Shown piece after piece: positions 1 to 64,000 of a stretch of DNA of 64,000 bases. Source of the DNA: an uncultured bacterium (GTDB lineage: Bacteria; Eisenbacteria; RBG-16-71-46; CAIMUX01; WJJG01); contig CAZDKK010000018.1 of assembly GCA_964506245.1 (NCBI GenBank), positions 973 through 64,972 on the forward strand, written 5' to 3'. Made by a program: the position numbers and the translations under genes. The notes under the pieces were generated by a model. It had not been told where the DNA came from, ran no database searches, and saw only the letters and a program-made list of their open reading frames with translations. The first letter of the stretch is position 1. Each line of letters begins with the position of its first letter.

Positions 1-1113
1 GTCGCCTCCCACTGGGGTGGAACGCGCAACGGGACGATCGTCCGCTGGCCCAAGGGGATCAAGGCGAATGGCCAGATCCGCAGCCAGTTCTGCCACGTGA
101 TCGACGTGGCGCCGACGATCCTGGAAGCGGCCGGCCTCCCGGAGCCGGCCTGCGTCAACGGCGTGCAGCAGAGTCCCCTGGAAGGGACGAGCATGCTCTA
201 CAGCTTCGAAGACGCCAAGGCGCCGGAGCGGCACGAGACGCAGTACTTCGAGATGTTCTGCAATCGCGGCATCTATCACAAGGGATGGAGCGCGGTGACC
301 CGGCATTCCACGCCGTTCATCCCCGTGGAGAAGCTGCTCCCCTTCGACGACGACGTGTGGGAGCTCTACGACGGCAGCAAGGACTGGACGCAGGCGCGCG
401 ACCTGTCGAAAGAGATGCCGGAGAAGCTCCATGAGCTGCAGCGGCTGTGGCTGATCGAAGCCACCAAGTACAACGTCCTGCCACTCGACGACCGCCGGAT
501 TGAGCGTTTCAACCCCGACCTGGCCGGGCGTCCCACCCTGGTCAAAGGTGACTCGCAGCTCCTCTTCGGCGGCATGGGCCGGCTGAACGAGAACTGCGTC
601 GTGGTCATGAAGAACAAGTCCTTTTCGATCACGGCCGAGGTGGAGGTGCCGCAGGCGGGCGCCGAGGGCATCATCCTCGCCCAGGGCGGGGCCTTTGGCG
701 GCCTGAGCCTCTATGCCAAAGGGGGAAAAGCGAAGTTCGCCTACAACCTCCTGGCCGTCAAGATCTTCACGATCGAAGCCAGCGAGCCCATCCCGGTCGG
801 CACGCACCAGGTGCGGATGGAGTTCGCCTACGACGGCGGCGGCCTGGCCGGGGGCGGCAACGTCGCGCTCTACTACGACGGCCGGAAGGTCGGCCAGGGC
901 CGCGTCGAGCAGACCGTGCCCATGCAGTTCTCCGCCGACGAGACGACCGATGTAGGCCGCGAAAGCGGCACGCCTGTCAGCCCCGATTACGACAGGAAGA
1001 CCAGTGTCTTTACGGGCAAGATCCACTGGGTACAGATCGACCTGGGCAAGGACGACCACGACCATCTGATCAGTCCGGAGGAGCGGCTGCGCGTGGCGAT
1101 GACGCGGCAATGA
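1..1113 (+). CDS. Arylsulfatase, C-terminal part (5'-truncated by window edge)
   Basis: Frame open from base 1: SHWGGTRNGTIVRWP...QFCHVIDVAPTILEAAGLP...QYFEMFCNRGIYHKGW...WELYD, plus a C-terminal LamG-like extension (KSFSITAEV...F..DETTDVG); typical of type I arylsulfatases. Confidence 0.9.
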   Translation, partial: VASHWGGTRNGTIVRWPKGIKANGQIRSQFCHVIDVAPTILEAAGLPEPACVNGVQQSPLEGTSMLYSFEDAKAPERHETQYFEMFCNRGIYHKGWSAVTRHSTPFIPVEKLLPFDDDVWELYDGSKDWTQARDLSKEMPEKLHELQRLWLIEATKYNVLPLDDRRIERFNPDLAGRPTLVKGDSQLLFGGMGRLNENCVVVMKNKSFSITAEVEVPQAGAEGIILAQGGAFGGLSLYAKGGKAKFAYNLLAVKIFTIEASEPIPVGTHQVRMEFAYDGGGLAGGGNVALYYDGRKVGQGRVEQTVPMQFSADETTDVGRESGTPVSPDYDRKTSVFTGKIHWVQIDLGKDDHDHLISPEERLRVAMTRQ

Positions 1114-1173
1114 GCGACCCGCGGCCGCGCGGGGAAACAGGTAGAGGAATCGAATCAGGAGGGAGGCCGTAAG

Positions 1174-2700
1174 ATGGCAGACAAGAAACCGAACATTCTC
1201 GTCCTGTATGGCGATGACATCGGCTGCTGGAACATCAGCTACAACAATCGCGGCCAGATGGGCTACCGGACACCGAACATCGACCGCATCGCCCAGGAGG
1301 GCATCGCGTTTACCGACTACTACGGGCAGCAGAGCTGCACGGCCGGCCGCGCTGCCTTCATCACCGGGCAGAATCCGATCCGCACGGGTCTGACGAAGGT
1401 CGGAGCGCCGGGACACAAGCTGGGCCTTATGGCGGAAGATCCAACGATCGCCGACCTGCTCAAGCCGCTGGGGTACGCGACCGCTCAGTTCGGCAAGAAC
1501 CACTTCGGAGACCTGAACGAGTACCTGCCCACCGTCCACGGGTTCGACGAGTTCTTCGGCAACCTCTACCACCTGAACGCGGAAGAGGAGCCCGAGGATC
1601 CGGACTACCCGAAGGACCCGAGGTATCGCCAGGCGATGGGCCCCCGCGGCGTGCTGCGCTGCTCCGCGACGGACCGGGACGATCCGACCGAGCAACCGCG
1701 TTGGGGCCGCGTGGGCAGGCAGAAGATCGAGGACACGGGCCCTCTGACCAAGAAGCGCATGGAGACCTGCGACGAGGAGTTCACCGAGGCGGCCCTCGAC
1801 TTCATCGACCGCGCCCACAAGGCGGGGAAGCCGTTCTTCGTCTGGTGGAACTCCACCGCGATGCACGTCTGGACCCACTGCGCCAAGAAGAACGAGGGGA
1901 AGAGTGGGCAGGGCTTCTACAATGACGTGATGGTGGCCCACGACGAGCTGGTCGGGAAGCTGCTGGCCAAGCTCGATGAGCTGGGCATCGCCGACAACAC
2001 CATCGTGGTCTACTCCACGGACAACGGCCCGCATTTCAACACGTGGCCGGACGCCGCGATCAGTCCCTTCCGCAGCGAGAAGAACACGAACTGGGAAGGC
2101 GGTTGGCGCGTGCCGGCGTTCGCGCGCTGGCCGGGCCACTTCAAGGCCGGCACCGTATTGAACGACATCGTCTGCCATCAGGATTGGCTGCCGACGCTGC
2201 TCGCGGCCGCGGGTGATCCTGAGATCAGTGCGAAGCTGCTGCAGGGCCACAAGGCCGGGGACAAGACGTTCAAGGTCCACATCGACGGCTACAACATGGT
2301 GCCGTATTTCTCGGGTCAGGCGAGGGAGAGCCCGAGGAAGTACTTCGCCTACGTGAACGACGACGGCCAGCTGGTGGCGATGCGCACGGGCGACTGGAAA
2401 GTCGTGTTCGACGAGCAGCGGGCGAAGCAGATGGCCTGCTGGTCCGATCCGTTCGTCCACCTGCGGCTGCCGAAGATCTTCCACCTGCGGCGGGATCCCT
2501 TCGAACGTGCCGACGAGAACTCCAATTCCTACTGGGACTGGGTGCTCAGCCACACGTTCATCATGGGGATGGCCGCGGCGGTCGTGACGACGCTGCTCAA
2601 GTCCCTGGGCGAGTTCCCGCCGCGGCAGAAGCCGGCAACCTTCAACTTGGACAGGGTCCTCGAGGAACTCCAGGAGGCCGCGGGAGGAAGACACCGCTAG
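1174..2700 (+). CDS. Arylsulfatase (formylglycine-type)
   Basis: KPNILVLYGDDIG, catalytic motif SCTAGRAAFITG (CxAxR), GKNHFGD, STDNG, EGGWRVP; RBS GGAGG upstream. Confidence 0.95.
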   Translation: MADKKPNILVLYGDDIGCWNISYNNRGQMGYRTPNIDRIAQEGIAFTDYYGQQSCTAGRAAFITGQNPIRTGLTKVGAPGHKLGLMAEDPTIADLLKPLGYATAQFGKNHFGDLNEYLPTVHGFDEFFGNLYHLNAEEEPEDPDYPKDPRYRQAMGPRGVLRCSATDRDDPTEQPRWGRVGRQKIEDTGPLTKKRMETCDEEFTEAALDFIDRAHKAGKPFFVWWNSTAMHVWTHCAKKNEGKSGQGFYNDVMVAHDELVGKLLAKLDELGIADNTIVVYSTDNGPHFNTWPDAAISPFRSEKNTNWEGGWRVPAFARWPGHFKAGTVLNDIVCHQDWLPTLLAAAGDPEISAKLLQGHKAGDKTFKVHIDGYNMVPYFSGQARESPRKYFAYVNDDGQLVAMRTGDWKVVFDEQRAKQMACWSDPFVHLRLPKIFHLRRDPFERADENSNSYWDWVLSHTFIMGMAAAVVTTLLKSLGEFPPRQKPATFNLDRVLEELQEAAGGRHR

Positions 2701-2718: not shown

Positions 2719-3066
2719 ATGCACGAACTGGTCGCGATGGTGGCCGACGGCATCGAGGCTGTCGCCGTGGTGGTCATCGTGGGCGGTATCGTTTACGGTA
2801 TCGCCCGCTGTTTCATTGGCCGGGCCACGGAGCCAGGCCGGGCCTACAGGAATCTCAAGTTCCGGCTGGGGGCGTCCCTGTTGCTCGGTCTTGAGTTCCT
2901 GGTGGCCGGCGATATCATCCGCACGGTGGCGCTCAATCCAACGCTCGACAAGGTGGCGACCCTGGGCGTATTGATCGCCGTCCGCACGTTCCTCAGTTGG
3001 GCCCTGGTGGTGGAGATGGACGGACGCTGGCCGTGGCGGGCCAAAACCGAATCGGAGGGGAGGTGA
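2719..3066 (+). CDS. DUF1622-like small membrane protein
   Basis: LGASLLLGLEFLVAGDIIRTV...LGVLIAVRTFLSWAL..EMDGRWPW matches the DUF1622 pattern (from recall); RBS present. Confidence 0.8.
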   Translation: MHELVAMVADGIEAVAVVVIVGGIVYGIARCFIGRATEPGRAYRNLKFRLGASLLLGLEFLVAGDIIRTVALNPTLDKVATLGVLIAVRTFLSWALVVEMDGRWPWRAKTESEGR

Positions 3067-4830: not shown

Positions 4831-4875
4831 GTCGTGCGAACCGGGCGACGGTAACCCCTTTTCGGGAGGTTGGTC

Positions 4876-6537
4876 ATGGCATCTTGCCGGCGCGCGGCCC
4901 AGGGGCTCGGGCTCATCTTCACATTGGCGGTCAGCACCACGAGCGCGGCGCAGGCGGTCGACCTCGAGCCCGGTTGGCCGCAGGTCACGGGCTTCAGCGT
5001 GTCCCAGTCGGGCGTGGCGGCGCAGTTCGACACCGACCCGGAATGGGAGATCGGCATTGCCTCCCAGGACGGGTACGCCTACGTATTCAACCACGATGGC
5101 ACCATTCTCTCAGGCTGGCCGCGCTACATGGGGCCGGCCCTCTGGCCCGACCAGTACGCCTACTTCTGCTCCTCGCCCGCCGCGGTGGACCTCGATGAGG
5201 ACGGCCGGGACGAGCTCGTCGTCGGCAACTTCGACGGCCGGCTCTACGCCTTTCGCCGCGACGGCACCGCCATGCCCGGCTTCCCGGTCGCGCTCGCCTT
5301 CATGACCTTCTCGACCCCGGCCTGCGGCGACATCGACGGCGACGGCCGCCTCGAGATCGTGCTGGGCGACAACAATGGCTTCATCTATGCCTTCAACCAT
5401 GATGGCACGATCTGCTCCGGCTTCCCGTACTCGACGCCGTATGTGGTGCGCAATTCGGCAGCGCTGGGGGATCTCGACGGCGACGGGCTCGACGAGATCG
5501 CGATCACCGCGGACAACAGTTCCTACAACCTGGTGGTGCTGGACGGCAACGGCCAGATGATGCCGGGCTTCCCGCGGCTCATCGGCGTATCGGGGGCGGG
5601 CGCCTCGCCCAGCTTCGCAGATATCGACGCCGATGGCCGGCTCGACATCGTCATCGGGGCCCGCGATGGCACCCTCCACTGCCTGCGCGACGACGGCACC
5701 TACCTGCCCGGCTGGCCCATCGACGCCGGCTACTCGACCCACAGCTCGGCCGCGATCGCCAACCTCGACGCCGATCCCGAGCTGGAGTTCGTCCTCGGCA
5801 TGAACGACTCGCAGGTACGCGCCTACAACCACGACGCGACGCTGCTGCCCGGATGGCCGCAGGCGACCTCTTACTCGGTCTTCTCCTCGCCCTCCATCGG
5901 TGATCTGGACGGCGACGGTGCACTCGAGGTCGTGGTCGGAGAGAACACCGGCAAGGTCTACGCGTGGGAGATCGACGGCACACCGTTGCCCGGCTTCCCC
6001 CTCACCGACCCGACCTACACCATCTACTCCTCACCCCTGCTCGAGGATCTCGACCTCGACGGCCACCTCGAGCTGCTGGTGGGCTGCAATGACACGTGGA
6101 TCTACTGCTGGGATCTCGGGCCGGACACCTACAACCCGGACGGGTTGCCCTGGCCGAAGTGGCGCCGCCGCGCCGACAACGACGCGACCGTCCCGCTCAT
6201 CGACCCCGCATCGGTTCACGCGGCGGTCACCACGGGGCAGCGGCTCTCCGTCTGGCCCAATCCGATGTGCGCGACGGCGCACATCTCCTACCGACCGGCC
6301 GCACCTGGACCGGTAGTGCTGACCATCCACGACGCGCAGGGTCGTGCAGTGCGGCGGCTGGCGTCGGCCGCCACGGGGTGTGTGAGCGTGTCGACCGCCG
6401 GGGTGGCGGGCGCCGTCGCATCGCTCACCTGGGATGGGTGCGACGACCATGGTCGGTCCCTGCCCCACGGAATCTATCTGGTGCGCCTCCTGGCGGGGGA
6501 CGTGACGCAGACAGCGCGCGTGCTGGTGCTGCGGTAG
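4876..6537 (+). CDS. Secreted FG-GAP/VCBS repeat beta-propeller protein with C-terminal FlgD-Ig/T9SS-type-A-like domain
   Basis: Signal peptide; repeated SPA.(G/A)D(L/I)D.DG..EIV.G and GWP/GFP motifs; tail VWPNP...IHDAQGRAVRRL...WDGCDDHGRSLPHGIYLVRL...RVLVLR. Confidence 0.9.
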   Translation: MASCRRAAQGLGLIFTLAVSTTSAAQAVDLEPGWPQVTGFSVSQSGVAAQFDTDPEWEIGIASQDGYAYVFNHDGTILSGWPRYMGPALWPDQYAYFCSSPAAVDLDEDGRDELVVGNFDGRLYAFRRDGTAMPGFPVALAFMTFSTPACGDIDGDGRLEIVLGDNNGFIYAFNHDGTICSGFPYSTPYVVRNSAALGDLDGDGLDEIAITADNSSYNLVVLDGNGQMMPGFPRLIGVSGAGASPSFADIDADGRLDIVIGARDGTLHCLRDDGTYLPGWPIDAGYSTHSSAAIANLDADPELEFVLGMNDSQVRAYNHDATLLPGWPQATSYSVFSSPSIGDLDGDGALEVVVGENTGKVYAWEIDGTPLPGFPLTDPTYTIYSSPLLEDLDLDGHLELLVGCNDTWIYCWDLGPDTYNPDGLPWPKWRRRADNDATVPLIDPASVHAAVTTGQRLSVWPNPMCATAHISYRPAAPGPVVLTIHDAQGRAVRRLASAATGCVSVSTAGVAGAVASLTWDGCDDHGRSLPHGIYLVRLLAGDVTQTARVLVLR

Positions 6538-19066: not shown

Positions 19067-22000
19067 TTACCGCACGACCAGCACCCGCGCCGACCGCTCG
19101 ACGATCTCGTCCGCCGCGCGCACGCGAGCCCGCGCCAGGTAGATGCCGCTTGGGTTCGACCGGCCGCCGTCCCACGTGTAAGCGTGGACGCCCGGCCCCT
19201 CGCTCCCCTGCTGCAGCACCGCCACCCGCCGGCCGGAGAAGTCGAACAGGCTGAGCTCGACCTCGGCCGCCGCCGGCAGGTCCAGCCGCACCGCCGCGCG
19301 CCCATCGCCCAGGGGCCGCGCCGACAGCGCCACGCTCGTAGGCACCGGCGGCTCGGGCGTGATCGGGTCTACCGGGACGATCGGGTCGGCACCCGGGTCG
19401 GGATTCGGATCTTCCCCGATCCCCGGCTCCTCCACGCTGCTCATGTCGGTCACGATCTCGATCTCGACCCGGTCGGCGTAGTAGTGCGTGATGTAGGTCC
19501 CGCTCACGCCCGGCGCGCCCGTTTCCAGCGTGAACTCGCCGCTGCGCGAGCCGCAGTTCAGGATCGTGAACCGCTGCCCGGTCACCGGGGTGTAGCCGCC
19601 CGCCGGTCGCACGACCAGCCGCCCGGAGAGGCTCGCCTGCCCGCTCACCTGCAGGTGGTCGAACTGGCCCGCGGTCGTGCCGCCGATCTCGACCCAGTAG
19701 GTGCCGTCGGCCGTCTGGGCATAGTCGCCCTGGATCGCCAGAGACCCGGTGGAGTTGGCCGTGGCGCCGGGGGCCATCCCGCCGCCGCACGTGACGTTGC
19801 CCTGCACTGTGCCGATCCCGCTCAGCGTACCACCGTTCACCGTCGCCGGACCGGGTGTGACAATGAGCGTGCCGTTGACGCTCGTGCGGCCGTAGTCGGC
19901 CTCGTCGTTGCCTGTTTGCGTGAAGGCGCCGTTGACCGTCACGGTCGAGCCCGCGCCGATCGTCAACCGGCCGGAGTCGACGGCCAGGTCGCCGGACGTG
20001 GTCAGGCTCGGCCCCCCGGTGAGGGCCAGATCGCCGGCCGACTTGATCCTGTTAAGCGAGGCCAGCACCAGGGTCGTCCCGTCGTCGCTGTAGAGGTTCG
20101 CGCTCGGGCCCTCGAGCAGAACCCGCGCGTCGAGCTGCTGGATGTTCGCGCCGAGCAGGCGCATCGTGCTATTGGGCCGCACGAGCCACGCCCCTCCGGT
20201 CAGCGTCCCGGAGGCGTAGTTGTTGATCGTGCTCGAGGTCCGGAAGACGCTCCCGCCGGTCGCTTCCGCGGTGCCGTTGTTGGTGAGGGTGGTCTGGACT
20301 TCCAGTCTGGCTCCGTTCTGGGCTCGCATGGTCCCGTAGTTGAACTTCTCCTGGTTGTGCAGCAGGAGCGTGCGCCCCGCTACATCTGCCAGGACCGTGC
20401 CGTAGTTCCGGAGATAGACCCCCACGACGCCGTCGCCGCGAATCGTGTGGCTGGCTGTTTGCGTGACCGACGCGTAGTAGTCTTCGAGCCGCGCGTCCCA
20501 CACATCCCCGGTGGTCTGCAGGACGATCTGACCGCTGCCGTCGAGCGTCTGACCATAGCCCGTGGCATAGAAGTAGGTATCGTCGCCGGTGTGATCCGAG
20601 TTGATCGTGACCGTCCCATTGTTCGTGAAGGAACACGTCATGAATACCTGCTGGCCCGCGTGGATATCCAGGCGTCCTTGATTCGTCACGTGGTCGAGGT
20701 ACGTGCCGCTGTAGCATTCCACCGCGCCGCCAGCCGCCGTCGCGAGGCTTCCCCCGTACACCCAGGTGCGAAGCAGCACCCGGCCCCCGTCGGCCAGCAG
20801 GAGGCCCGGCGCCTCCTGGTTGACCGGGTTGACGACGTTGAGCACGCCTCCCCCGGTTGCCTTGCACGTGGCATAGTTGTACAGGTTCTCGCACTGTAGC
20901 TGGAGCGTGCGGCCGTTGACGTCGGCGCTCACCAGGCCGTGGTTCCAGAGGTAGACGGTCACAACCCCCTCGCCGTGGATGGTGTGCCCCGCGCTTTGGA
21001 TCAGCGTGCCGTAGTACCCCTGGAGCCGCGCGTCCCAGATGTCGCTGCCTGACGTCTGCAGCAGAATGTCGCCGCTGCCCTGCAGATTGTGGCTGTAGCT
21101 GCTGACATAGAGGATGGCGTCGTTCCCGCTGGCCTCCGAGTTGACGGTGATCCGTTCGTTGTTTGTCGTCGTCGCACCCTGCAGCCAGAGCTGGCCTCCA
21201 CCGGCGATGGCGACCGGGCCCTGGTTCGTGACGTTGCGCAGCGTGCAGCCTCCTTGCAGGACGCGCAGGCGTCCGGCCTGAGTGCCATCCGCGAACGTCG
21301 TCCCGTTGTAGCAGTCGATCGTGCTCGTGCCGGTCGTCTCGAGCCGGCCGCCGGTCACCTCGCTCGCCAGCCGCACCGTGCCGCCGTCGGCCAGGATGCG
21401 CCCGGCAGCCCCCTGGGCGACCGGGGCGGTCACGTCGAGCGTGCCGCCGCCCACCGCCTGAAAGATCGCCTGGTTGTCCTTGCTGTCCTGGTAGATCCCC
21501 AGCGTGCGGCCGCTGACGTCGGCGCTGACCAGCCCGTAGTTGTTTAGGGTGATACCGACGACGCCCTCGCCGTGGATGGTGTGGCCAGCAGTTTGAACCA
21601 ATCTGCCATAGTAGGACGGCAGCCGGGCGTCCCAGATGTCGCCCCCGGAGGTCTGCAGGCGGATGTCGCCGCTGCCGTTGAGCGCCAGTCCGTAGTTCGC
21701 CACGTACAGGCAGGCGTCGTCGCCGCTCTGCTCCGGGTTGACCCAGATCGTCCCGTCGTTGGTGATTGCACTGCCGCACAGGAACGCCTGCTGCCCCGCT
21801 GGGACATGGAGCCGGCCCAGGGTGGTGATGTCATACAGCTGGCAGCCGGCCTGGCCCTCGATCACACCGTTGTGGTCCGAGTCGAAGGTGCCACCGGTGA
21901 CCGTGCCGCCATAGATGCGCACGATCCCCCCGTCGGCCAGGATGAGACCACTGCTGCCCTGGTTGACGGTGATGCCGTCCAGCCGCAGGATCCCGTTGTT

Positions 22001-22795
22001 GGTGGCGGCGAAAACACCGTTGTTGGTCTGCGTCTCATACGCGAGCGCCAGAACATGCCCGCTGTCGTCGGCGTCGATCCGCCCGGCATTGTGGGTGTCC
22101 AGCGTGATCCGGCCCGACCCGCGGATCGTGTGATCGGCCCCCTGGTACAGGGAGCCATAGTAGGGGGCGAGGTACGCCTCTTCCGGGTTGCCGTCGGTCT
22201 GAAGCACCAGCTCGCCCGGACCATCCAGCGCGCAGCCGTACCCCGAGATGTAGAGCCTGGCCGACCCGGTGCTCGGAAGCGAACCGACCCGAATCACGCC
22301 GCTATTGTGGGTACTGCCATTGGTGTAATACCAAACGTTGGTGGGCACGAGCAGCTGCCCCGTGGAGGCAAGCGTGAGCGCCCCCGCCAGGTACGCGTTG
22401 TGTCCCGCTAGGATCGTACCGCTGCTGTGCAGCCCCGCCGGTTGGTAGAGGTCCATGCGCCGATTGCCCAGGTTGAGCGTCGCCGCCACGTTGTTCTGGT
22501 CCAGCTGGTCGAAGCCCGCGTCGCTGTCGAGCGTGATCGTGTAGGCGCCCGATCCCGCAGGGATGATCGCGCTTTCCCCACTCTCGTTTGGAACGTCCTG
22601 CGGGTCCCAGTTGGAGGCGCTCCACCAGTTGCCCCCGCCCGGGTTGACCCAGGTGATGGTCTCGGCGCGAGATCCCCCCGTGCTGGTCACGAGCATCAGA
22701 CAGAGAATCGAGAGCGCCTGCGACCGCAGCGCGTCCCTCGTCCCCCGCCTCGCGTCCGTCCCGCTCCGCTCACTCGCCTTCGTGCAAGGGTGCAT
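19067..22795 (-). CDS. Large secreted beta-helix/autotransporter-passenger-like repeat protein with FlgD-Ig/T9SS-like C-terminal domain
   Basis: SD AAGGAGG; long signal peptide; [18 protein letters not shown]; four long internal repeats (D.WDARL..YY..(L/V).Q.A.HTI.G.GVV); acidic Pro-rich linker; tail [12 protein letters not shown]...WDGG...SGIYLAR...RVLVVR. Confidence 0.85.
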
Positions 22796-23170: not shown

Positions 23171-24406
23171 TCAGCGGGGCTGGACGAGCACCGGGGGCGC
23201 GACGGCCGAGTCGCCTGCAGTGGATCGCGCCGAGTCGCCTGCGGCGGCCCCCGCCGAGTCGGGCGCCAGCGGAGCTCCCGGCTGCCCGCCGCCCGTCTCG
23301 CGCTGCCGCTGCGCCTGCATCAGGCGAAATCTCTCCATCCGTTCCTGGCGCTTCCTCTCGAGCATGGCATCGACCGCGCGCCGGCTGGCCTCGGTCGTGG
23401 CGGCCACCACGGCGGCCACGTGCGGGTCCTCGGGCCAGCTCGGATCCAGCGCCGGGGCCTGCCCGCTGAAGTCGACGATCTCGTTGCCGGGCGACACCAC
23501 CAGGTTCGTGACCGCGACCGCCACGCCGCGATCCCCCGAGCGATTCACGACGGCCCGGCCGAACTTGACCGGTTGCTCGTCGCGGTCCTGATGCGTGCCC
23601 GCCAGGATGACATCGATCTCGGGAATCGAGTCGGCGAAGGTCTGGATACTCACGTCGTCGAGGTGGCCGATCAGGACGAGGATGTCGGCCCTTTCCCGGG
23701 CCAGCCGCTTCGCCTCCGCCTCGTGGAGCACTCGCGCGGCCGGCGCCAGTTGCGCACCGGTGCCCTTCAGGAGCCGAGCCACCTCCCGCGTGGTCGCGAT
23801 CGGCGGCAGCACGCGCACCGCGCCCTGTGCTTCCCGCAACGCGGCGGTCGTGTTGCGCCCTTCGTCCAGGACGCTGAGGAAGCCGACGCGCACGCCGTCC
23901 ACCTCCACCACCCGGCAACGCGCGCCGACGGGCTTCCAATCCTCACCCGCGCGCCGCTCGACGTTGGTGGTGACGAGCGGCAGGGTCGATCCGAGCCCCA
24001 GCAGGCTGTCGGTCAGGGTCCACTCGGCAACCTCGTACTCGCCAAGGGCCACCGCGTCGTAGTTCAGGCGCTCCATTTCACGCCAGACCGCAACGCTCTC
24101 CCGCCACCGGACCGAACGCGTGGGGTGGAAGAATCCGCCGCCGTCGACCAGGAGGATGCGGCCCAGCGCGACGCGCTGGCTGTCGATGAAGGCGGCCCGC
24201 CGGGCCAGCCCACCCTTCTTGCCGTGTCAGCCGCAGGGGACGATCTCGCCCTGGAAGCAGCTCTGCGAGAGGATGTGGAGCGTGACGTTGTCCGCGCGCG
24301 GGACGCGCCCGTCCCCGCCCGACCGCAGCGCGCACCCGGCCAGCAGGGCGAGCATCGCCGCGGCCGCCGTGCGCATCCGCGCAGTGCAAGGCGCGGGGGC
24401 GCTCAT
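23171..24406 (-). CDS. UshA/5'-nucleotidase-fold (seleno)lipoprotein B; in-frame TGA at 24229-24227 read as Sec (C-G-U)
   Basis: ATG overlaps the upstream TGA; lipobox LAG-C; SQSCFQGEIVPCG*HGKKGGLARRAAFID..RILLVDGG continues in frame into ORF 23171..24076; 411 aa if read through. Confidence 0.85.
24179..24229 (-). other. Putative bacterial SECIS element (paralogue B)
   Basis: UGA followed by hairpin GAAGG..GGCCC-GGC-GGGCC..CCUUC; 51 nt identical to 25186-25236. Confidence 0.75.
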
Positions 24407-25464
24407 CACTGCTCCGACCCGGGCCGCTCGCGGCGTTGATTGCGCTCCCGGACCCGTCGCTCCCCCTCCGCCTTGGCCGACTCGGCCGCTTGCGCAACGG
24501 CCGCATCCTCGGCGTACTCGGGAACGAGCGTGAAGTTGAGGCCACCGAAATCGACGATCTGCCCCTCGGGGGAGATGATCAGGCGCGTCACCGAGACCAC
24601 CTGGCCGCGCGAACCGGACCGGTTGAGGATCGCGTCGCCGGCAGGCACCGGGCCGGTGTCCGCGGCCGTCATGTGCCCGCCCAGGATCACGTCCACGTCG
24701 GGCAGGAGCGACGCGTACTGCTCCATGGCCTGCGGATCGAGGTGTGCCAACAGCACGAGGACGTCGGTGCGTCCCCGGACCTCGGCCACCGCTTCCCGCA
24801 GGCTCTCTTCTGGCGGCAGCAGGCGGACGCGGTCGCCCGTGCTCCGGATCACGGTGGGGCTGAGTTGAGTGGGGCCAATCACGCCGAGGATGCCAACCCG
24901 GATCCCGTTGATCTCGATCAGCCGGTACCGTTCGCCCAGCTGCTGCCATTGGCCGTCGCGCAGCACCTCGACGTTGGTGCAGACCACCGGCAGGGGCGTG
25001 TGACGCATGAGGCTGTCGACGGTCTCCCACTGGCCGAATTCCAGCTCGCCCAGGGTCACCGCCTGATAGCCCGTGCGCACCATCTCGTTCCAGGTCAGAA
25101 CGCTCTCGAGGTAGTTGTCCCGGGCGTTGCGGTGGAGGAAGTCTCCCCCATCCACCAGGAGCAGCGGCCTCCCCTTGACCCGCGCGCTGTCGATGAAGGC
25201 GGCCCGCCGGGCCAGCCCACCCTTCTTGCCGTGTCACCCGCAGGGGACGACTTCACCCTGGAAGCAGCTCTGAGACGCGATGTACAGCTCGACGTTGGTG
25301 GGTCGCAGGCCCGAATCGACGCTCGGGCGCGCCCCCGAACCCGCGCAGCCGCCGAGCAGGAGCACGGCTGCCGAGACCGCGAGCAGGACCGCCCCGGCGC
25401 AGCCGCCCACGAGCAGCGCCCCGGCCCCCCGGCGAACCGGGCCCAGGAACCTGTGCATCTTCAT
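24406..25464 (-). CDS. UshA/5'-nucleotidase-fold (seleno)lipoprotein A; in-frame TGA at 25236-25234 read as Sec (C-G-U)
   Basis: SD GGAGGGGG; lipobox LGG-C; SQSCFQGEVVPCG*HGKKGGLARRAAFID..PLLLVDGGDF continues in frame into ORF 24406..25155; 352 aa if read through. Confidence 0.88.
25186..25236 (-). other. Putative bacterial SECIS element (paralogue A)
   Basis: TGACACGGCAAGAAGGGTGGGCTGGCCCGGCGGGCCGCCTTCATCGACAGC; G-rich apical loop starts about 25 nt after UGA. Confidence 0.75.
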
Positions 25465-25519: not shown

Positions 25520-27673
25520 TCACAGGTGGGTTGGACCTGGCGGCGCCCCGATGCTCTGCAGCATGCTGTCGATCACGGCCACCCGATCGGGACGCGACGC
25601 CTCCACGCGCCTGGCCTGCAGAAGAGTCTCGCGTGCGCGATCGTTCTCGCCCCGCTCGAAGAGCAGCCTGCCCAGCACGAACTGGACATCGGGGCTGTTT
25701 GGATCAATCGCCGCCGCCCGCGACAGCGTCGCGATGGCGCCATCGATGTCCTCCCCCTGCAGGTGCCAGATCCCGAGGTTGTAGAGCACCTTCGGGCTCT
25801 CGGGATCCAGTTCGACCGCTCGCTTGAAGTACGGTCCGGCTTCTTCGTGCTGCTTGTGGCGGCCGTAGATGATGCCCAGGGCGAGGAGCCCGGCAACGTT
25901 CGTCTCGTCGATTTCGAGCAGGCGCTTCAGGCAATCCTGCGCTCCGGCCGTGTCGTTCAACGCCTCCATGATCCAGGCCAACTCGTACAGCGCGGTCACC
26001 GCATGCGCCTGGAACTCGAGGATCGCCTCCGCATGGCGCCGGGCTCCCTCCAGGTCGCCCGCCGCCCGCTTGATGCGGCATAGGTAGAACTGGGCCTCTT
26101 CCTGCTCCGGATCGACCGCCACGCAGCGCTCGAAGTACTGCTGGGCGATGCGCGGATCCATCTTGAGCTGGAGCTGGGCCTTCCCCAAGTTGATCAGGGC
26201 CGCCGCATTGTCGGGATCGGCTAGGAGCACCTGTTCCAGCAGGCGTACGCCGTCGGTGGAATAGCCCATCCGCAGGTTCTCGGTCGCCACGCCGATCTGG
26301 TCGAACAGGTAGCGCATCTCGTGTGGATCGTTGAGACTTTGCACATCCTCGAGCGCCGAGGACACGCGGCTGACGCCGCGCCGCGCGCTTGCGAGGTACC
26401 CCAGCGAGGCCAGTTTCTGCAGGGTCTCGTTGTCCGCGGCGGCGACCGAGGCGCTCGCGTCCTCCGATGTCCAGCGCCGCATGGTCTCCGCGAGCTCCTC
26501 GGTGAGCCGTTCCACGGCCGCGGGCTCGCGTGCAGCCAGATCGTAGAGCTCTCCGGGATCCTCACCGACGCGGTAGTAGCGCGGCTTCGGCCCGTGGATG
26601 ATCTTCTCGTCCCCCAGGCGCAGGGCGCGCAGCGCTCCCCAACCGCACTGCAACTCGCCCACGAGCGATTCCATGTAGAGAGCCCGCGGGGCGCTCGCGA
26701 CCTGTTCGCCTCGGACCAGCGGGGCCAGCGACCGGCCCTGCACATCAGATGGGATCTCGATCCCGAGCAGGTCGAGAACCGTCGGCATGATGTCGACGGT
26801 GCCGGACAACTCCTCCAGGCGGAGACCGGCGGGCCCACCCGGCAGGCGGAAGATCAGCGGCACGCGCATGACGCTGTCGAAAACCAGCAGCGAGTGGGTG
26901 GGCTCGCCGTGCTCCATGAGCCCCTCGCCGTGGTCGGCCACGATGACGATGAGCGTGCGATCGTAGAGCTTCTGCTTCTTCAACTCGGCGAAGACGTGAC
27001 CGAGCTGTTCGTCGACGAAGGCGATCTCACCCGCGTAGGGCTCCGTGAACCGGCTGTGGTAAGGCTCGGGCGGGTTCACGGGCTGATGCGGATCGAAGTA
27101 GTGGAGCCACAGGAAGAAGGGCGCGGATCTCGACTTCCTGAGCCAATTCAGCGCGGAGCGGGTGACCAGGTTGGCCTTGCGTTCCTCGAATCCGAACTCG
27201 TTGGCTGCCCGCGTCTCTAGTTCGTCCCGCGACCAGCCCTCCGCGAGGTTGTCGTCATAGGTCGTGAATCCCTGATCGAGGTTGAAGCGTGAATCGAGCA
27301 CGAAGGCTCCGACCACCGCTCCGGTGTCATAGCCGGCGTCCTTCATGACCTCGGCCAGGGTCGTGACGTCCTCGCGCACGACGTAGGTGGAGTTGTCGCG
27401 CACGCCGTGGAAGATCGGGTAGGTCCCGGTCAGGATCGAGGTGTGAGACGGCAGGGTGATGGGATTGGTGCAGAAGGCCTTCTGGAAGAGCGCGCCCTCG
27501 GCCGCCAGCGCATCGATGTTGGGGGACGTGGGCTCGGCGTAGCCATAGCAGCCGAGTCGATCGGCGCGGGCGGTATCGATGGTCACCAACAGAACGTTCC
27601 ACCGGTCCTCGCGCGCGCAGCCGCATGCGAGGAGGAGCGCCAGGGCGGCGAGCGGTAGGCGGGAGCACTTCAT
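25520..27673 (-). CDS. Sulfatase-like hydrolase/transferase lipoprotein with C-terminal TPR repeats
   Basis: Lipobox LAC/ACG-C; NVLLVTIDTARADRLGCYG, PITLPSHTSILTG, FLWLHYFDPH, ADHGEGL.EHGE.TH; TPR-like helical repeats; ATGA overlap with the upstream gene. Confidence 0.9.
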   Translation of the reverse strand: MKCSRLPLAALALLLACGCAREDRWNVLLVTIDTARADRLGCYGYAEPTSPNIDALAAEGALFQKAFCTNPITLPSHTSILTGTYPIFHGVRDNSTYVVREDVTTLAEVMKDAGYDTGAVVGAFVLDSRFNLDQGFTTYDDNLAEGWSRDELETRAANEFGFEERKANLVTRSALNWLRKSRSAPFFLWLHYFDPHQPVNPPEPYHSRFTEPYAGEIAFVDEQLGHVFAELKKQKLYDRTLIVIVADHGEGLMEHGEPTHSLLVFDSVMRVPLIFRLPGGPAGLRLEELSGTVDIMPTVLDLLGIEIPSDVQGRSLAPLVRGEQVASAPRALYMESLVGELQCGWGALRALRLGDEKIIHGPKPRYYRVGEDPGELYDLAAREPAAVERLTEELAETMRRWTSEDASASVAAADNETLQKLASLGYLASARRGVSRVSSALEDVQSLNDPHEMRYLFDQIGVATENLRMGYSTDGVRLLEQVLLADPDNAAALINLGKAQLQLKMDPRIAQQYFERCVAVDPEQEEAQFYLCRIKRAAGDLEGARRHAEAILEFQAHAVTALYELAWIMEALNDTAGAQDCLKRLLEIDETNVAGLLALGIIYGRHKQHEEAGPYFKRAVELDPESPKVLYNLGIWHLQGEDIDGAIATLSRAAAIDPNSPDVQFVLGRLLFERGENDRARETLLQARRVEASRPDRVAVIDSMLQSIGAPPGPTHL

Positions 27674-29457
27674 CGGCTGCCAGCCTCCTGTCCGATCGGC
27701 GGCAGGTGGTCCTCGTAGATCTTGAGAGCGATGGACTCCAGAACCTTCTGCCGGATCTCGTTGGTCATCGTCTGGTAGTTGCGGCGCGCGTAGTTTTGGC
27801 GGACAAGTTCCTCGACCTCCTCGAAGGTCTTCTGTACGGGCGGCGTGTCCTTGATGAGCCGGACGATGATGATGCCCACATCCATGTAGCACAGACGCTC
27901 GGGATCGTAGACCTCGGCCATCTGGGCGTCCGCAACCTCCCCCTCCTTCAGCTTGTTGAGGATGGCGTGAAACCAGGGTCGCGGTGCCACGAGCCGGGTG
28001 ACGTCTTGGTTGTTGAGTCCCTCCATGCGGCCACCGTTGCTCGCGGAGTAGTGCTTGGAGTAGGTGCGCGCCAGCTCGGCAAAGTCCTCGCCGGCGCGAA
28101 TGCGGTCCACCAGGGCCTCGCCGCGCCGCAGGGTGCGCCAGAGAGGCTCACCCCCCTCCGGCTTCAGCAGGATCACGTCGAGATCCCGCGTGCGCAGGGT
28201 CTGGTAGCGCTGCTCGTTCTGCGCGAAGTACTCCCTGATCTCCTCTTCCGGAACCTCCGCGACGGCGCGCTGCAGACGCTCATCGAGAGCCCGCTGGTAG
28301 TTCACCTCGCGGACCGCTGCCTCGATCTGGACGGCCACGTCGGGGCGGTCCTGAAGGCCGAGTCGCTTGGCCTCCAGGGTCAGAAGCTGGCCCAGGGTGA
28401 CCTGGTCCAGGAACTTGTAGATGTTGGTGAAGACGTGCGCGTACAGATGCGACAGCTCGTGCTCACCCAGCGCGCTGCTCAGATCCTGGAGGGTGTAGCG
28501 CTGCCCCTCGATCGAGATGAGGGTCTCGTCACGCGGGATGAAAGGATCCTCCAGACGCTCGTAGTGCCGCTCGAGGCCGTGGCGGGGACCCACCTCCTCG
28601 ACGAATGCGCGCTGAGCCGCCGCGAGCTTGTCCGCATTCGCCCGGCGGCGGGCGAACTCGACCACGTCCTCGAACTTGCGGTCGAGGGCCGGCAAGCGCT
28701 CCATCATCTTGGCGATCTGGAAGCCGGTGGGGGTCTCGATGATGCCGCTGACCTCGTGGCGCTTGAGGTTCCAGACCCCCTTGATGAAGGAAGGGTGCAC
28801 GTCGTCCGTTGCGGCGAGTGTCAGCCACCCCCCGGAATTCGCGGTGGAGGACTGGGAGTGCTGGCGGGCCATCTCCTCGAAATCCGCCCCCTGCATGATC
28901 TGGCGGCGAAGCTCCTCGAGCCTCTGGCGCACCTTCTGCCGTTCGGGTTCGGGGACCGCCCCAACTTCAGCCCGCAGGAAGATGTACTGCACCCGCACCT
29001 TCTCAGGGTCCTTGTACTGCTCCGGATGCGAGTCGTACTGCTGGCGGATCTCCTCGGCGGTCGAGGCGATCTGGTCCCAGCCCAGCTCGTGCGTCATGGC
29101 CGTCTTCAGCACACCTGCCTCCGCCTGATTCAGGGCGGGCAGCATCGTGGGGTCTTCTTTCGGCGAGGGAGCCTCAGCGGCCAGGGCCTTGCGAATGGCG
29201 ATCTCCCGTATGTTCTCTATGCGCCAGTCGGCAGTGCCGCTCTCAGCCGGCGTGGGCCCTTGCCCGGCCGGGCCCGGCTGCGCTTGCTCCTTGGGGCGCT
29301 TGAAGGCGTCGAACTCGGCGCGGCGGACCTCGCCTTTCCGGAATGTGGCCAGAACCTGCGGATCCTTGGATGCGGCCGGCCTTCCGTCGCCGCCACATCC
29401 CATGCCCAAGGCCGGGCCGATGAGGAGAAGCCAGAGCCATGCGCCGGAACGCCGCAT
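27670..29457 (-). CDS. SurA/PrsA-like parvulin peptidyl-prolyl isomerase lipoprotein (two rotamase domains)
   Basis: Lipobox-like LGMG-C; VRVQYIFL...GADFEEMARQHS..STANSGGWL and GEDFAELARTYS..SASNGG; IIETPTGFQIAK. Confidence 0.85.
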   Translation of the reverse strand: MRRSGAWLWLLLIGPALGMGCGGDGRPAASKDPQVLATFRKGEVRRAEFDAFKRPKEQAQPGPAGQGPTPAESGTADWRIENIREIAIRKALAAEAPSPKEDPTMLPALNQAEAGVLKTAMTHELGWDQIASTAEEIRQQYDSHPEQYKDPEKVRVQYIFLRAEVGAVPEPERQKVRQRLEELRRQIMQGADFEEMARQHSQSSTANSGGWLTLAATDDVHPSFIKGVWNLKRHEVSGIIETPTGFQIAKMMERLPALDRKFEDVVEFARRRANADKLAAAQRAFVEEVGPRHGLERHYERLEDPFIPRDETLISIEGQRYTLQDLSSALGEHELSHLYAHVFTNIYKFLDQVTLGQLLTLEAKRLGLQDRPDVAVQIEAAVREVNYQRALDERLQRAVAEVPEEEIREYFAQNEQRYQTLRTRDLDVILLKPEGGEPLWRTLRRGEALVDRIRAGEDFAELARTYSKHYSASNGGRMEGLNNQDVTRLVAPRPWFHAILNKLKEGEVADAQMAEVYDPERLCYMDVGIIIVRLIKDTPPVQKTFEEVEELVRQNYARRNYQTMTNEIRQKVLESIALKIYEDHLPPIGQEAGSR

Positions 29458-41427: not shown

Positions 41428-42105
41428 TCAGCGCAGGTCAACGACGCTGTTCATGATCGACAGGTTGCGGCCGGCGCAGACGAAGAGCTTGCGCTGGCTG
41501 CGATCGTCCGTGGGCACAAAGGGGCCCCACGGGCCCGTCGCCAGGCGGTCCAGGAACCGCGCGACCTGAGCCTCGGTGCCGCAAGCTCGCAGGTCCACGT
41601 GGTACGGGGGGAAGCAGGGCCCGGTCGTGTGCGCGAGGAGCGAGCGCTCGGCCAGCGCCAGGCCGCAGGAGTCGATCCGCGCGCCCACGGCCTCGACCGC
41701 CGCTACCCACTCGGAGTCCGCGAGGGGCGCAACCGACCCGACCTGCGCGAAGAGCGGCGTGTCGACGCCCAGCCGCTCGCACGCGGGTCCGCCTCGGGGC
41801 CCCTCGCCCGGGGCGAGCAACTCGACCAGCGCGGCTTGCGCGGCGCTGTCGGAGAAGGCAGCCAATCCGTACGCGCGCTCGGTCGTCTGGCACCCCCCCA
41901 CACGCATGACCGGACCCTCCGGTGGCGGGCTCGCGCCGCGGCCGGCGTCCCGGCTGCCGCCCGCCGCGAGCGCGGGCAGCGCGGCCAGGGTGAGCGCGAG
42001 GGCGATCCGGGCGGGGCGCGCAATCGGCACCCGCCGAGCGCGACGGGGGATTGCCACGCGCCGAGCCCGGTGGGCCATCGGTGCATGTCGCCGCGGGGAC
42101 ATCAC
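41428..42105 (-). CDS. Hypothetical secreted protein with six Cys
   Basis: GTGA overlap with the upstream gene; hydrophobic signal IALALTLAALPALA; exact start uncertain. Confidence 0.55.
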   Translation of the reverse strand: MMSPRRHAPMAHRARRVAIPRRARRVPIARPARIALALTLAALPALAAGGSRDAGRGASPPPEGPVMRVGGCQTTERAYGLAAFSDSAAQAALVELLAPGEGPRGGPACERLGVDTPLFAQVGSVAPLADSEWVAAVEAVGARIDSCGLALAERSLLAHTTGPCFPPYHVDLRACGTEAQVARFLDRLATGPWGPFVPTDDRSQRKLFVCAGRNLSIMNSVVDLR

Positions 42106-48150: not shown

Positions 48151-49644
48151 GTGGACATCCTGGCGATTCATCCGCAGGAGCCCGAGCGAGCGGTCTTCGA
48201 GAAGATGCCGCCCCTGGGCATGCTGTGGATTGCGGGTGAGCTGCGCAAGGCCGGCTACGAGGTTGCCTTCTACGACCAGCAGGTCGATGAGCGCACACCC
48301 GAGGAGATCGTGCGTGCCGCTCGACCGCGCTTGGTTCTGATCGGAGGCACGACCCACAGCCGCTTCGCATCCTTCGCCGCGGCGCGGGCCGTCAAGCAGG
48401 TGGATCCCAGCGCGCTGGTTGTCTACGGCGGCCCCCACGCCTCCTTCACCGCGCCGGACACGCTCACCCACATCACCGAGATCGACATCGTCGCCCATGG
48501 CGAGGGCGAGGAGACGGCGCTCGAGCTGGCAGAGTGGGCGCTGCGCGGCGCAGGCCGACCCGAGGACCTCGGGCGTATCCGGGGCATCTCCTATCGTCGG
48601 GACGGCCAGGTGGCTCGCACGCCGGATCGGCCACCCATCGCCGACCTCGACCGGCTGGGCCCGCCCGCGCGCGACCTCGTTCCCCTCGATCGCTACGCCA
48701 TGCAGATGGACTACCTCAGTCGCCCCGGCGCGTCGGTGGTGAGCGCCCGAGGGTGTCCGATCCTGTGCACGTTCTGCTCCGCGGCGGCCATGTTCGGGCG
48801 AACCTACCGCACGCGCACGCCGGCCCTGGTGGTGGACGAGATCGAGGGCCTGCTCGCCCAGGGCGCCGAGGGCATCAAGATCTTCGACAGCACCTTCACG
48901 CTGAGTCGCCGTCACGTGGAGGAGTTCTGCGACGAAATCAAGAGGCGCGATCTGCGCTTCCCCTGGGAGTGCGAGATCCGGGTCGGATCGGTCGACAAGG
49001 TGCTGCTGGCGAAGATGCAGGTCGCCGGCTGCTACTACATCGACGTCGGCATCGAGTCGGGTTCCCAGCGCGTGCTGGATGAGTGCGTCGGCAAACGGAT
49101 TTCACTCGGCGATGCCCGCCGGACGCTGGAGTGGGCGCGCGAGCTGGGTCTCCTCGCCAAGGTCTTCTACACGGTCGGCCACCCCGGAGAGACATTTGCC
49201 GAGGGTTTGCGGACCCTCGCCTTCATGGCCCGCACGCGCCGGAGCACGCGGCTCCAGGCCTGCCGGATCGGCGTCAAGGTCTATCCCGGAACGCAGGTCG
49301 CGGACTACGCCGAACGCAAGAAACTCATGCCCCCAGGCTTCCGGTGGTCGGCTCCGTATGATAACGAGGACAATCGCGCGCTGCTGAGCGAGCTCGACAC
49401 CGTGCCCGTGTTGATCCAGCCGCAGCTAGGGCTGCGCGAGCTGCGACGGCTGCGCGTGCTGTTTCTGCTGATGCGCTCGTTCTCCGCGCGGTATCTGTTC
49501 GCCAAGGTGGGAGCACTGCTGCGCGGCGAAGGGCTGCCGGAGAATGCGCGCGCGCTTCTGCGCGGGAGGGCGGGAACGCCCCGAGGACCCAGCGATCAGG
49601 GTCGCACAGATCCACCCGCGGGCAGATCGCCGGCGAGGGAATAG
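48151..49644 (+). CDS. B12-binding radical SAM enzyme (class B methyltransferase-like)
   Basis: PPLGMLWIAGEL, VVYGGPHAS, DIVAHGEGE, SARGCPILCTFC, DSTFT, GIESGSQRVL. Confidence 0.93.
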   Translation: MDILAIHPQEPERAVFEKMPPLGMLWIAGELRKAGYEVAFYDQQVDERTPEEIVRAARPRLVLIGGTTHSRFASFAAARAVKQVDPSALVVYGGPHASFTAPDTLTHITEIDIVAHGEGEETALELAEWALRGAGRPEDLGRIRGISYRRDGQVARTPDRPPIADLDRLGPPARDLVPLDRYAMQMDYLSRPGASVVSARGCPILCTFCSAAAMFGRTYRTRTPALVVDEIEGLLAQGAEGIKIFDSTFTLSRRHVEEFCDEIKRRDLRFPWECEIRVGSVDKVLLAKMQVAGCYYIDVGIESGSQRVLDECVGKRISLGDARRTLEWARELGLLAKVFYTVGHPGETFAEGLRTLAFMARTRRSTRLQACRIGVKVYPGTQVADYAERKKLMPPGFRWSAPYDNEDNRALLSELDTVPVLIQPQLGLRELRRLRVLFLLMRSFSARYLFAKVGALLRGEGLPENARALLRGRAGTPRGPSDQGRTDPPAGRSPARE

Positions 49645-49723
49645 TCTTGTGGAGTCGACTTGCGACCGATTGGCAGTGTGGCTGCGTGCTATCGTGACAG
49701 GAAGTCCATGGGGTATTTCGGGA

Positions 49724-63432: not shown

Positions 63433-64000
63433 TCAGGGCAGGAACTGCTTCGGATTGGCGAGCTTGGCCGGCAGATACTCCTCGATCACGTAGTTCAACC
63501 CCCACTTGGCGAGGGCCTGCTGCTCGGCGCGCACCCCCATCTTGATCAGCATCTCCAGCGCCTTGGCCCACGGCTTGTGCTCGCGGAAGAAGGGATCGTT
63601 CTTCAGGGCGTCGCGCGCGCGCTTGACGTCGACCTCCTTCAGCGGGTGCGTGGGCAGCTTGTAGTCCTTGATATCCTGCGGCGTCACGCCCAGGAAGCGG
63701 GCCGCGGGCGCGCAGAAGAACTGGTTGATGTGGGCCGCGTTGCCCGAGCCGACCTTCAGCGTTCGGTAGATGTTGGAGATGCCGTAGGGATCGCAATCGA
63801 CGAAGGCGTAGATCGGGATCCGGGCCTGCTCCGAGAGCCGCCGGACGAAGCGCCGCGTCGAGCGCGTCGGCACGCCGCTCATGCTGACCAGGATGCAGCC
63901 GGCCTTCTTCCAGAACTTGTGGCTCTGCAGCCGCTGGAACATACCGCCCGTCTCGATCGCCAGGATGAACTTGGCCTTGGTCTCGAAGGATAGGTGCTCC
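63433..64000 (-). CDS. top6A: DNA topoisomerase VI subunit A (Spo11-like), 5'-truncated by window edge
   Basis: TOPRIM: ILAIETGGMFQRL, GVPTRSTRRF, FVDCDPYG..IY..LKVGS; C-terminal RAEQQAL...G..Y...YLP. Confidence 0.93.
   Translation of the reverse strand, partial: EHLSFETKAKFILAIETGGMFQRLQSHKFWKKAGCILVSMSGVPTRSTRRFVRRLSEQARIPIYAFVDCDPYGISNIYRTLKVGSGNAAHINQFFCAPAARFLGVTPQDIKDYKLPTHPLKEVDVKRARDALKNDPFFREHKPWAKALEMLIKMGVRAEQQALAKWGLNYVIEEYLPAKLANPKQFLP

Follow-up and report, generated by a model that had tools for sequence, protein, structure and literature searches.

A probable bacterial selenocysteine insertion sequence in two tandem UshA-like lipoprotein genes of an uncultured Eisenbacteria-type bacterium

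Results

The window analysed here is a 64,000-nucleotide stretch of contig CAZDKK010000018.1 from an uncultured bacterium of the Eisenbacteria, and our subject is a hairpin, a candidate bacterial selenocysteine insertion sequence (SECIS), that follows an in-frame UGA in two neighbouring genes. The genes stand in tandem on the minus strand. Gene B (24406..25464, 352 codons) was delimited by translation and codon alignment, and its paralogue, gene A (23171..24406, 411 codons), by codon alignment. Each has one in-frame TGA, the putative selenocysteine (Sec, U) codon: codon 77 in gene B (25234..25236, minus strand, within V-P-C-G-U-H-G) and codon 60 in gene A (24227..24229, minus strand, within VPCG-U-HG). 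The ATG of gene A overlaps the stop codon of gene B by one base (TGATG; 24404-24408, minus strand), which suggests that the two genes form one operon with translational coupling. Lipoprotein signal peptides were predicted by eye at LLLGGC in B (Cys40) and LLAGC in A (Cys25). The two proteins are 45% identical.

The top NCBIfam match for both genes is NF041198, UshA_like_PCGU ('UshA-like (seleno)protein'), at 79.5 bits for A and 99.4 bits for B. Both scores lie far under the cut-off of 275 bits, and the match is limited to positions 23-271 of the 519 in the model. The window proteins share with this family an N-terminal UshA/SoxB-like domain of metallophosphoesterase type, and both have the P-C-G-U (CxU) motif in the UshA-like domain, followed by GGLARR. 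The C-terminal half of the model, which corresponds to a multihaem cytochrome c domain in the relative P0022 (P numbers denote proteins and L numbers loci), is absent from A and B, which also differ from the family in being short forms (352 and 411 aa), predicted lipoproteins and tandem duplicates. The second UshA-like selenoprotein family, NF049981 (262 positions), gives only a weak match to the N-terminal region, at 38 and 35 bits against a cut-off of 140, and its listed motif is CxxU (PMC13188914), whereas that of A and B is CxU. Pfam finds a marginal Metallophos match in gene B (E = 5e-4). The closest relative of solved structure is the Thermus 5'-nucleotidase 2z1a; in the alignment its canonical N-D-T-H metal motif lies opposite S-Q-S-C, and the P-C-G-U loop precedes the conserved GG.ARR. 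UshA-like (COG0737) CxU selenoproteins were first listed in an analysis of the GOS selenoproteome (PMC2398784) and are also found in a 2026 review (PMC13188914). Genes A and B would encode short forms of this kind of selenoprotein.

From the in-frame TGA onwards the two genes are identical over 51 nt (24179..24229 in A and 25186..25236 in B, both on the minus strand), and the match cannot be extended by even one base on either side. An earlier reading of the letters alone, which we call the sequence-only reading, had reported this identity, together with synonymous differences before the UGA and none in the 16 codons after it, and our codon alignment bears out both statements. Just upstream of the TGA the genes (A/B) differ by the synonymous changes GGC/GGT, GAG/GAA, GGC/GGG and TCG/TCT and by one replacement, ATC/GTC; the TGA and the next 16 codons show no difference, and the genes diverge again from codon +17 (CAG/GCG). 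Outside the tract the DNA of A and B is 57.7% identical (542 of 939 aligned nt), with no other identical run longer than 17 nt. Where the proteins share an amino acid with degenerate codons, the same codon is used in 75 of 135 cases, and the probability of 16 consecutive same-codon matches is about 8e-5 with the amino-acid identity granted.

In the protein database the 21 close homologues all begin downstream of the UGA, and wherever the contigs could be read (loci L088-L094) an open reading frame (ORF) of 54-59 aa directly precedes the called gene. Gene callers usually leave this mark, a short ORF followed by an N-truncated main ORF, when they split a selenoprotein gene. Scans of genomes and metagenomes, together with contig look-ups, gave 36 sites of the form ...SQSCFQGE.VPCG-TGA-HG..GGLARRA..., with a TGA at all 36 and a Cys codon at none. 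Several of the related records are named Candidatus Eisenbacteria, and most of the genomes with such sites have two tandem copies. The 36 sites correspond to 28 distinct 51-mers; the pairing statistics were calculated on an alignment of 31 sequences, and nucleotides are counted from the U of the UGA.

The core hairpin occupies nt 20-39, at 24191..24210 in gene A and 25198..25217 in gene B (minus strand), and reads GGC-U-GGCCC-GGC-GGGCC-GCC. The U between the two helices is bulged and lies at 24207 in A and 25214 in B; the apical loop, GGC, lies at 24199-24201 and 25206-25208, and the motif match in gene A runs from 24194 to 24206. Below the bulge, U23, which is invariant, there are three base pairs (G20-C39, G21-C38 and (C/U)22-(G/A)37), and above it five (G24-(C/U)36, G25-C35, C26-G34, C27-G33 and C28-G32). 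Across the 31 sequences nt 19-39 are near-invariant, third codon positions included: GGG (C/U)UG GCC CG(G/U) (C/A)GG GC(C/U) (G/A)CC. Among the distinct 51-mers the triloop (nt 29-31) is GGC in 26, GUA in one and GUC in one, and pair 24-36 is G-C in 26 and G-U in two; apart from these two wobbles, all variation within nt 24-36 is in the loop. The hairpin keeps the same position after the UGA in both genes and at all 36 related sites, with no length variation.

Pair 22-37 covaries, as the sequence-only reading had proposed to check across orthologues. It is C-G in 19 of the distinct 51-mers, U-A in six, U-G in three and C-A in none (Fisher p = 1.1e-4), and the U22-A37 state occurs in no fewer than four separate branches or loci (the L003/L005/L006 clade, L014, L091 and L013). 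The change at nt 22 is synonymous (Leu, CUG/UUG), and that at nt 37 is an Ala/Thr replacement. Read from the opposite strand, the G-U pairs at 24-36 and 22-37 would turn into A-C mismatches, and so it is the sense RNA that carries the structure. The proportion of paired cells in the alignment is 95.7% in this register, compared with 41-65% when the partners are slid by one to three columns, and the observed covariation score was reached by only nine of 500 shuffles.

ViennaRNA folds the tract around GGCCC-GGC-GGGCC, at -13.2 kcal/mol for the core alone and -17.0 kcal/mol for the 51 nt. Folding, another check that had been proposed, thus predicts the hairpin, but the tract folds no better than shuffled sequence and we therefore dropped stability as evidence. 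The fold first suggested had paired GAAGG with CCUUC beneath GGCCC-GGC-GGGCC. The upper helix is conserved; the GAAGG/CCUUC stem was rejected, as 82.6% of its cells are paired, no better than in shuffles, and it shows neither covariation nor compensatory change. Four of its five pairs are broken in 5-11 of the 31 sequences, and the minimum-free-energy fold does not contain it. That fold has a different lower stem (nt 16-19 with nt 42-45), which varies without consistent compensation and is not claimed either.

The extent of the constraint was measured as pairwise synonymous diversity at codons of 4- and 6-fold degeneracy whose amino acid is conserved. Codons +1 to +12 have a diversity of 0.15, and those from +14 on have one of 0.54 (Mann-Whitney p = 3.6e-6). 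Gly+6, Ala+8 and Ala+12 show no synonymous variation at all, while elsewhere in these proteins invariant Gly, Ala, Arg, Leu (and Pro) residues have diversities of 0.5-0.7. By codons +15 to +18 diversity has recovered to 0.42-0.58, which places the end of the constrained zone at about nt 39-42 and not at nt 51. The earlier proposal that the identity reflects constraint on a SECIS at the nucleotide level thus stands from the UGA to about nt 42, and not for the rest of the 51 nt.

In more distant relatives the UGA aligns with Cys. The 516-aa relative P0022, which matches both halves of NF041198 and has a multihaem cytochrome domain in its C-terminal half, has EPCGC at the aligned position. Distant short-form homologues (326-356 aa), among them P0035, P0041, P0052, P0055 and P0056, place C-G-C opposite C-G-U, a classical Sec/Cys pair. 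In four other short-form homologues (P0032, P0039, P0043 and P0046) the aligned residues are not CGU or CGC (for example TCSRYTCQGGLARRA) or include no Cys at all, so the wider family does not show the Cys/Sec pair throughout.

The Cys forms also serve as a control. In P0035 (L096/L097; 68% G+C in the gene), which reads ...CGC RSMPK GGLARRAA..., the peptide GGLARRAA is encoded by GGA GGC CTC GCC CGC CGC GCC GCG, from which no such hairpin can fold. The hairpin is also absent from two other Cys forms, whose motif differs in sequence. The control comprises three genes only, one of them with the identical motif, and on the evidence of their sequences it separates an RNA signal from peptide and codon bias. 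Elsewhere in the window TGA is an ordinary stop codon, ending 19 of the 36 ORFs with high G+C at third codon positions (GC3), and a variant genetic code is therefore not the explanation.

The consensus model for bacterial SECIS elements (bSECISearch; PMC13188914) has a loop of 3-9 nt on an upper stem of 4-16 bp, a G within the first two loop nucleotides, as a rule in the form G[G|U]N, a distance of 16-37 nt from the UGA to the apical loop and a minimum free energy of -7.5 kcal/mol or lower. The hairpin here has a 3-nt loop on a 5-bp upper helix (8 bp with the three pairs below the bulged U), and the loop is GGC, GUA or GUC. The spacing is 25 nt (nt 4-28), constant in all 36 sites, and both energies given above lie under the limit, although not below those of shuffles. 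The sequence-only reading had placed a G-starting apical loop about 25 nt after the UGA, in line with the bacterial model, and this proved correct. The fit alone is weak evidence, the model being permissive and the DNA 70% G+C. As the model is permissive and the fold no better than that of shuffles, the case rests on the relatives, the conservation, the synonymous constraint and the Cys control.

We also fetched and folded the SECIS of E. coli fdhF (UGACACGGCCCAUCGGUUGCAGGUCUGCACC...), whose core, GGU-U-GCA-GGUC-UGC-ACC, consists of three pairs, a bulged U, three pairs and a loop starting GG. The element here, GG(C/U)-U-GGCCC-G(G/U)N-GGGC(C/U)-(G/A)CC, likewise follows the UGA directly within the coding region and is built of three pairs, one U bulged out on the 5' side, an upper helix and a small loop. 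The variants with U22-A37 have the same lower helix as E. coli fdhF (GGUUG...CACC). Both mRNAs open with UGA CAC GGC (Sec-His-Gly), at 24221-24229 and 25228-25236 in the window and in E. coli fdhF (L095); this start is exact in 25 of the 28 distinct sequences, and the His codon dictates the C that follows the UGA. The two elements differ in the upper helix (five G-C pairs here, 3 bp in E. coli), in the loop (3 nt, or 5 nt with 4 bp, compared with 4 nt) and in where the loop starts (nt 29 compared with nt 22). The element here has no conserved extended lower stem, and it belongs to another protein family and another phylum.

A neighbour-joining tree of the protein downstream of the tract nests window gene A in an 'A clade' with L014, L001+5263, L008+5200 and L004+5206, and groups window gene B with L001+4144, L008+4111 and L004+4072. 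Within the 51 nt, window A differs from the B clade at 0, 0, 1 and 3 positions and from its own clade at 5, 7, 7 and 10, whereas the other members of the A clade differ from the B clade at 4-10. At clade-informative sites, where the consensus bases of the A and B clades differ, window A has the B state at five of five sites between nt -11 and +45; in the rest of gene A there are 154 sites in the A state and 34 in the B state. These five sites define a putative minimal gene-conversion patch at 24185..24240 (minus strand), bounded by A-like sites at 24243-24242 (nt -14, -15) and 24178-24177 (nt +52, +53). The uncorrected probability of such a run is about 1e-4, or about 0.03 when corrected for some 200 possible run positions. 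An assembly chimera across the shared 51-mer was rejected, window A being A-like on both sides of the patch.

On this comparison it seems probable that a patch of about 57-66 nt, centred on the recoding signal, was copied from B to A, with one later change (GGC/GGG before the TGA). This patch most likely accounts for the outer part of the identity, namely nt 4-15 and 40-51 and probably a few codons before the UGA. Local gene conversion, which the sequence-only reading had named as an alternative cause, thus has a probable part in the result, and constraint and conversion probably act together on the 51-nt identity. The paralogues of the other ten two-copy genomes differ at 1-15 of the 51 nt. 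The window pair differs at none, and the pair in L094 (391 and 1479) at one, at 50% protein identity; the L094 pair hints that conversion patches around the SECIS may recur.

The hairpin had also been offered as a seed for finding other selenoproteins, and here the expectation failed: scanning the window and 94 loci with it gave no further selenoprotein gene. The pattern GGCCCGKNGGGCY has three matches in the window, with 0.32 expected. Two are the UGA sites; the third, at 41523-41535 (minus strand; GGCCCGTGGGGCC), has no UGA upstream or nearby, its frame reads ...ATGPWGPF..., and we regard it as a chance match in G+C-rich DNA. The extra seed matches in L006 and L091 have no upstream UGA and are also chance matches. 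Two other TGA codons in the window were set aside. That at 1111-1113, between two arylsulfatase-like genes in the same frame (1-2700, plus strand), is an ordinary stop followed by a new start (MADKKPNILVLYGDD), and that at 3064, between back-to-back high-GC3 ORFs, is an ordinary stop between adjacent genes. A literature search for Eisenbacteria with selenocysteine returned no match.

The surroundings of the pair vary. Directly upstream of the UshA-like pair in L088, L090, L091, L092 and two JGI contigs there is a gene for a DUF362 protein with a 4Fe-4S ferredoxin domain, which in these relatives adjoins a gene for a large GATase_4/FlgD_ig protein. The place held by the DUF362/ferredoxin gene, which may be a redox partner conserved elsewhere, is taken in the window by a sulfatase-TPR gene (25520-27892). 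A FlgD Ig-like domain is found at the C-terminus of three large predicted secreted proteins of the window, an FG-GAP repeat protein, a 1242-aa repeat protein encoded directly downstream of gene A and a CotH/malectin protein (4855-6537, 19067-22795 and 49472-52381), and the same C-terminal domain recurs beside the UshA-like genes of relatives. At the end of the window a partial ORF (63433-63999, minus strand) matches the topoisomerase VI subunit A/Spo11 Toprim domain (E = 4e-61), an uncommon find in bacteria.

Discussion

The explanation that we favour, with a probability of about 0.82, is that a SECIS follows the UGA in two neighbouring UshA-like lipoprotein genes and causes it to be read as Sec, with gene conversion probably adding the outer part of the identity. 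The two tandem minus-strand genes, probably co-translated, would encode short UshA-like lipoproteins of metallophosphoesterase fold with a Cys-Gly-Sec motif. The putative bacterial SECIS would lie immediately 3' of each UGA, with its core at nt 20-39 and a loop of the form G-(G/U)-N. In E. coli, SelB is contacted by the bulged U and by the G/U of the loop. On the model of E. coli fdhF, we infer that SelB-GTP-Sec-tRNA(Sec) would bind the apical hairpin through the loop G/U and the bulged U while the UGA is in the A site, and that Sec would be inserted in place of termination. This function would bar most synonymous change from the UGA to about nt 42, and the inner part of the 51-nt identity would follow from it.

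Several observations weigh against this explanation. No gene for tRNA-Sec was found in the 64-kb window or in 16 loci, and no selA, selB or selD in Pfam scans of 30 window ORFs or in the scanned flanks of related loci. The window has no match to any Rfam family at gathering thresholds; for the SECIS families there was none in 24100-25300 even at E values up to 10. The hairpin starts at nt 20, compared with nt 15 in E. coli, which puts it 5 nt farther from the UGA. Of the eight core pairs, five are invariant and so uninformative on pairing, which leaves the covariation to a single pair, and the 51-nt fold does not exceed dinucleotide shuffles in stability (z = +0.22; 116 of 200 were at least as stable). 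The exact 51-mer is the family consensus and is also present in two other loci, at L001+4144 and L094+391. As for the conversion, the five B-like sites amount to three conservative amino-acid changes (I/V, R/K and V/I) that could have arisen by convergence, and the corrected probability is about 0.03.

Other explanations account for parts of the evidence. Recent gene conversion might have produced the whole 51-nt identity, with a hairpin that has no function in RNA. The patch is supported for the flanks and the fold is no more stable than shuffled sequence, but the core is synonymously frozen in 28 distinct sequences on many contigs, including loci that are single-copy on the fetched DNA (L007, L009, L012 and L016). 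Taken with the covariation, the G-U pairs of the sense strand and the hairpin-less Cys-form gene, this makes conversion alone very unlikely. The conservation could instead reflect an invariant peptide, HG..GGLARRA, under strong codon bias or selection for translational accuracy, since the peptide is invariant or nearly so and GCC and CGG are common in a high-G+C genome. Such a bias should extend to the other invariant Gly, Ala, Arg, Leu and Pro positions, which have diversities of 0.5-0.7, and to the Cys form, which uses CGC CGC, GGA GGC and CTC for the same peptide. It also fails to predict that the choice between CUG and UUG for Leu tracks the G/A change between Ala and Thr 15 nt away, and we give it little credence.

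The near-perfect inverted repeat GGCCCG-N-CGGGCC, with its three occurrences in the window where 0.32 are expected, might by contrast be a DNA-level element, a protein binding site or a repeat that falls in the coding region by chance. Two of the three occurrences are the UGA sites themselves, and the one at 41523 has neither a UGA nor a conserved context; the position relative to the UGA is fixed at all 36 sites, and G24-U36 and U22-G37 pair only in the sense-strand RNA. A role for the palindrome as DNA is hardly credible. The UGA could also be a real stop, in split or decaying genes, or could encode another amino acid under a variant code. Gene callers do split every homologue at the UGA, and no Sec machinery was seen in the window or the scanned flanks, yet at all 36 sites the frame, the high GC3 and the motifs SQSCFQGE.VPCG and HG..GGLARR run across the UGA. 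Purifying selection acts on both sides of it and it aligns with Cys, while the 19 of 36 window ORFs that end in TGA show that TGA is not a general sense codon here. A stop or a reassigned codon is accordingly a most improbable reading.

A more tentative suggestion, which we hold at somewhat less than even odds, is that the related genes make up a third, as yet unmodelled, family of short UshA-like PCGU proteins. Its members would be exported lipoproteins without the C-terminal cytochrome or 5'-nucleotidase domain, confined to Eisenbacteria-type genomes, always with Sec (the 36 sites include no Cys orthologue) and usually in tandem. Selection and recurrent short-patch conversion would together keep the SECIS uniform.

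The signal described here, with Sec insertion as its probable function, is of a known kind, that of E. coli fdhF, in a known kind of selenoprotein, a short UshA-like CxU protein, and opens no new question in selenium biology. It carries a caution for reading function from sequence alone: judged by the perfect identity of the paralogues, the RNA constraint looked longer than it is, because a small gene-conversion patch probably lies over it. Covariation, a Cys-form control and 36 sites make the element a well-supported SECIS for an uncultured phylum. It indicates that the E. coli-type layout of three base pairs, a bulged U, a helix and a loop starting with G-G/U is used far from the Proteobacteria, at a spacing 5 nt longer. 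The whole family is mis-annotated at present, the UGA having been taken as a stop, and the result shows how these genes should be annotated.

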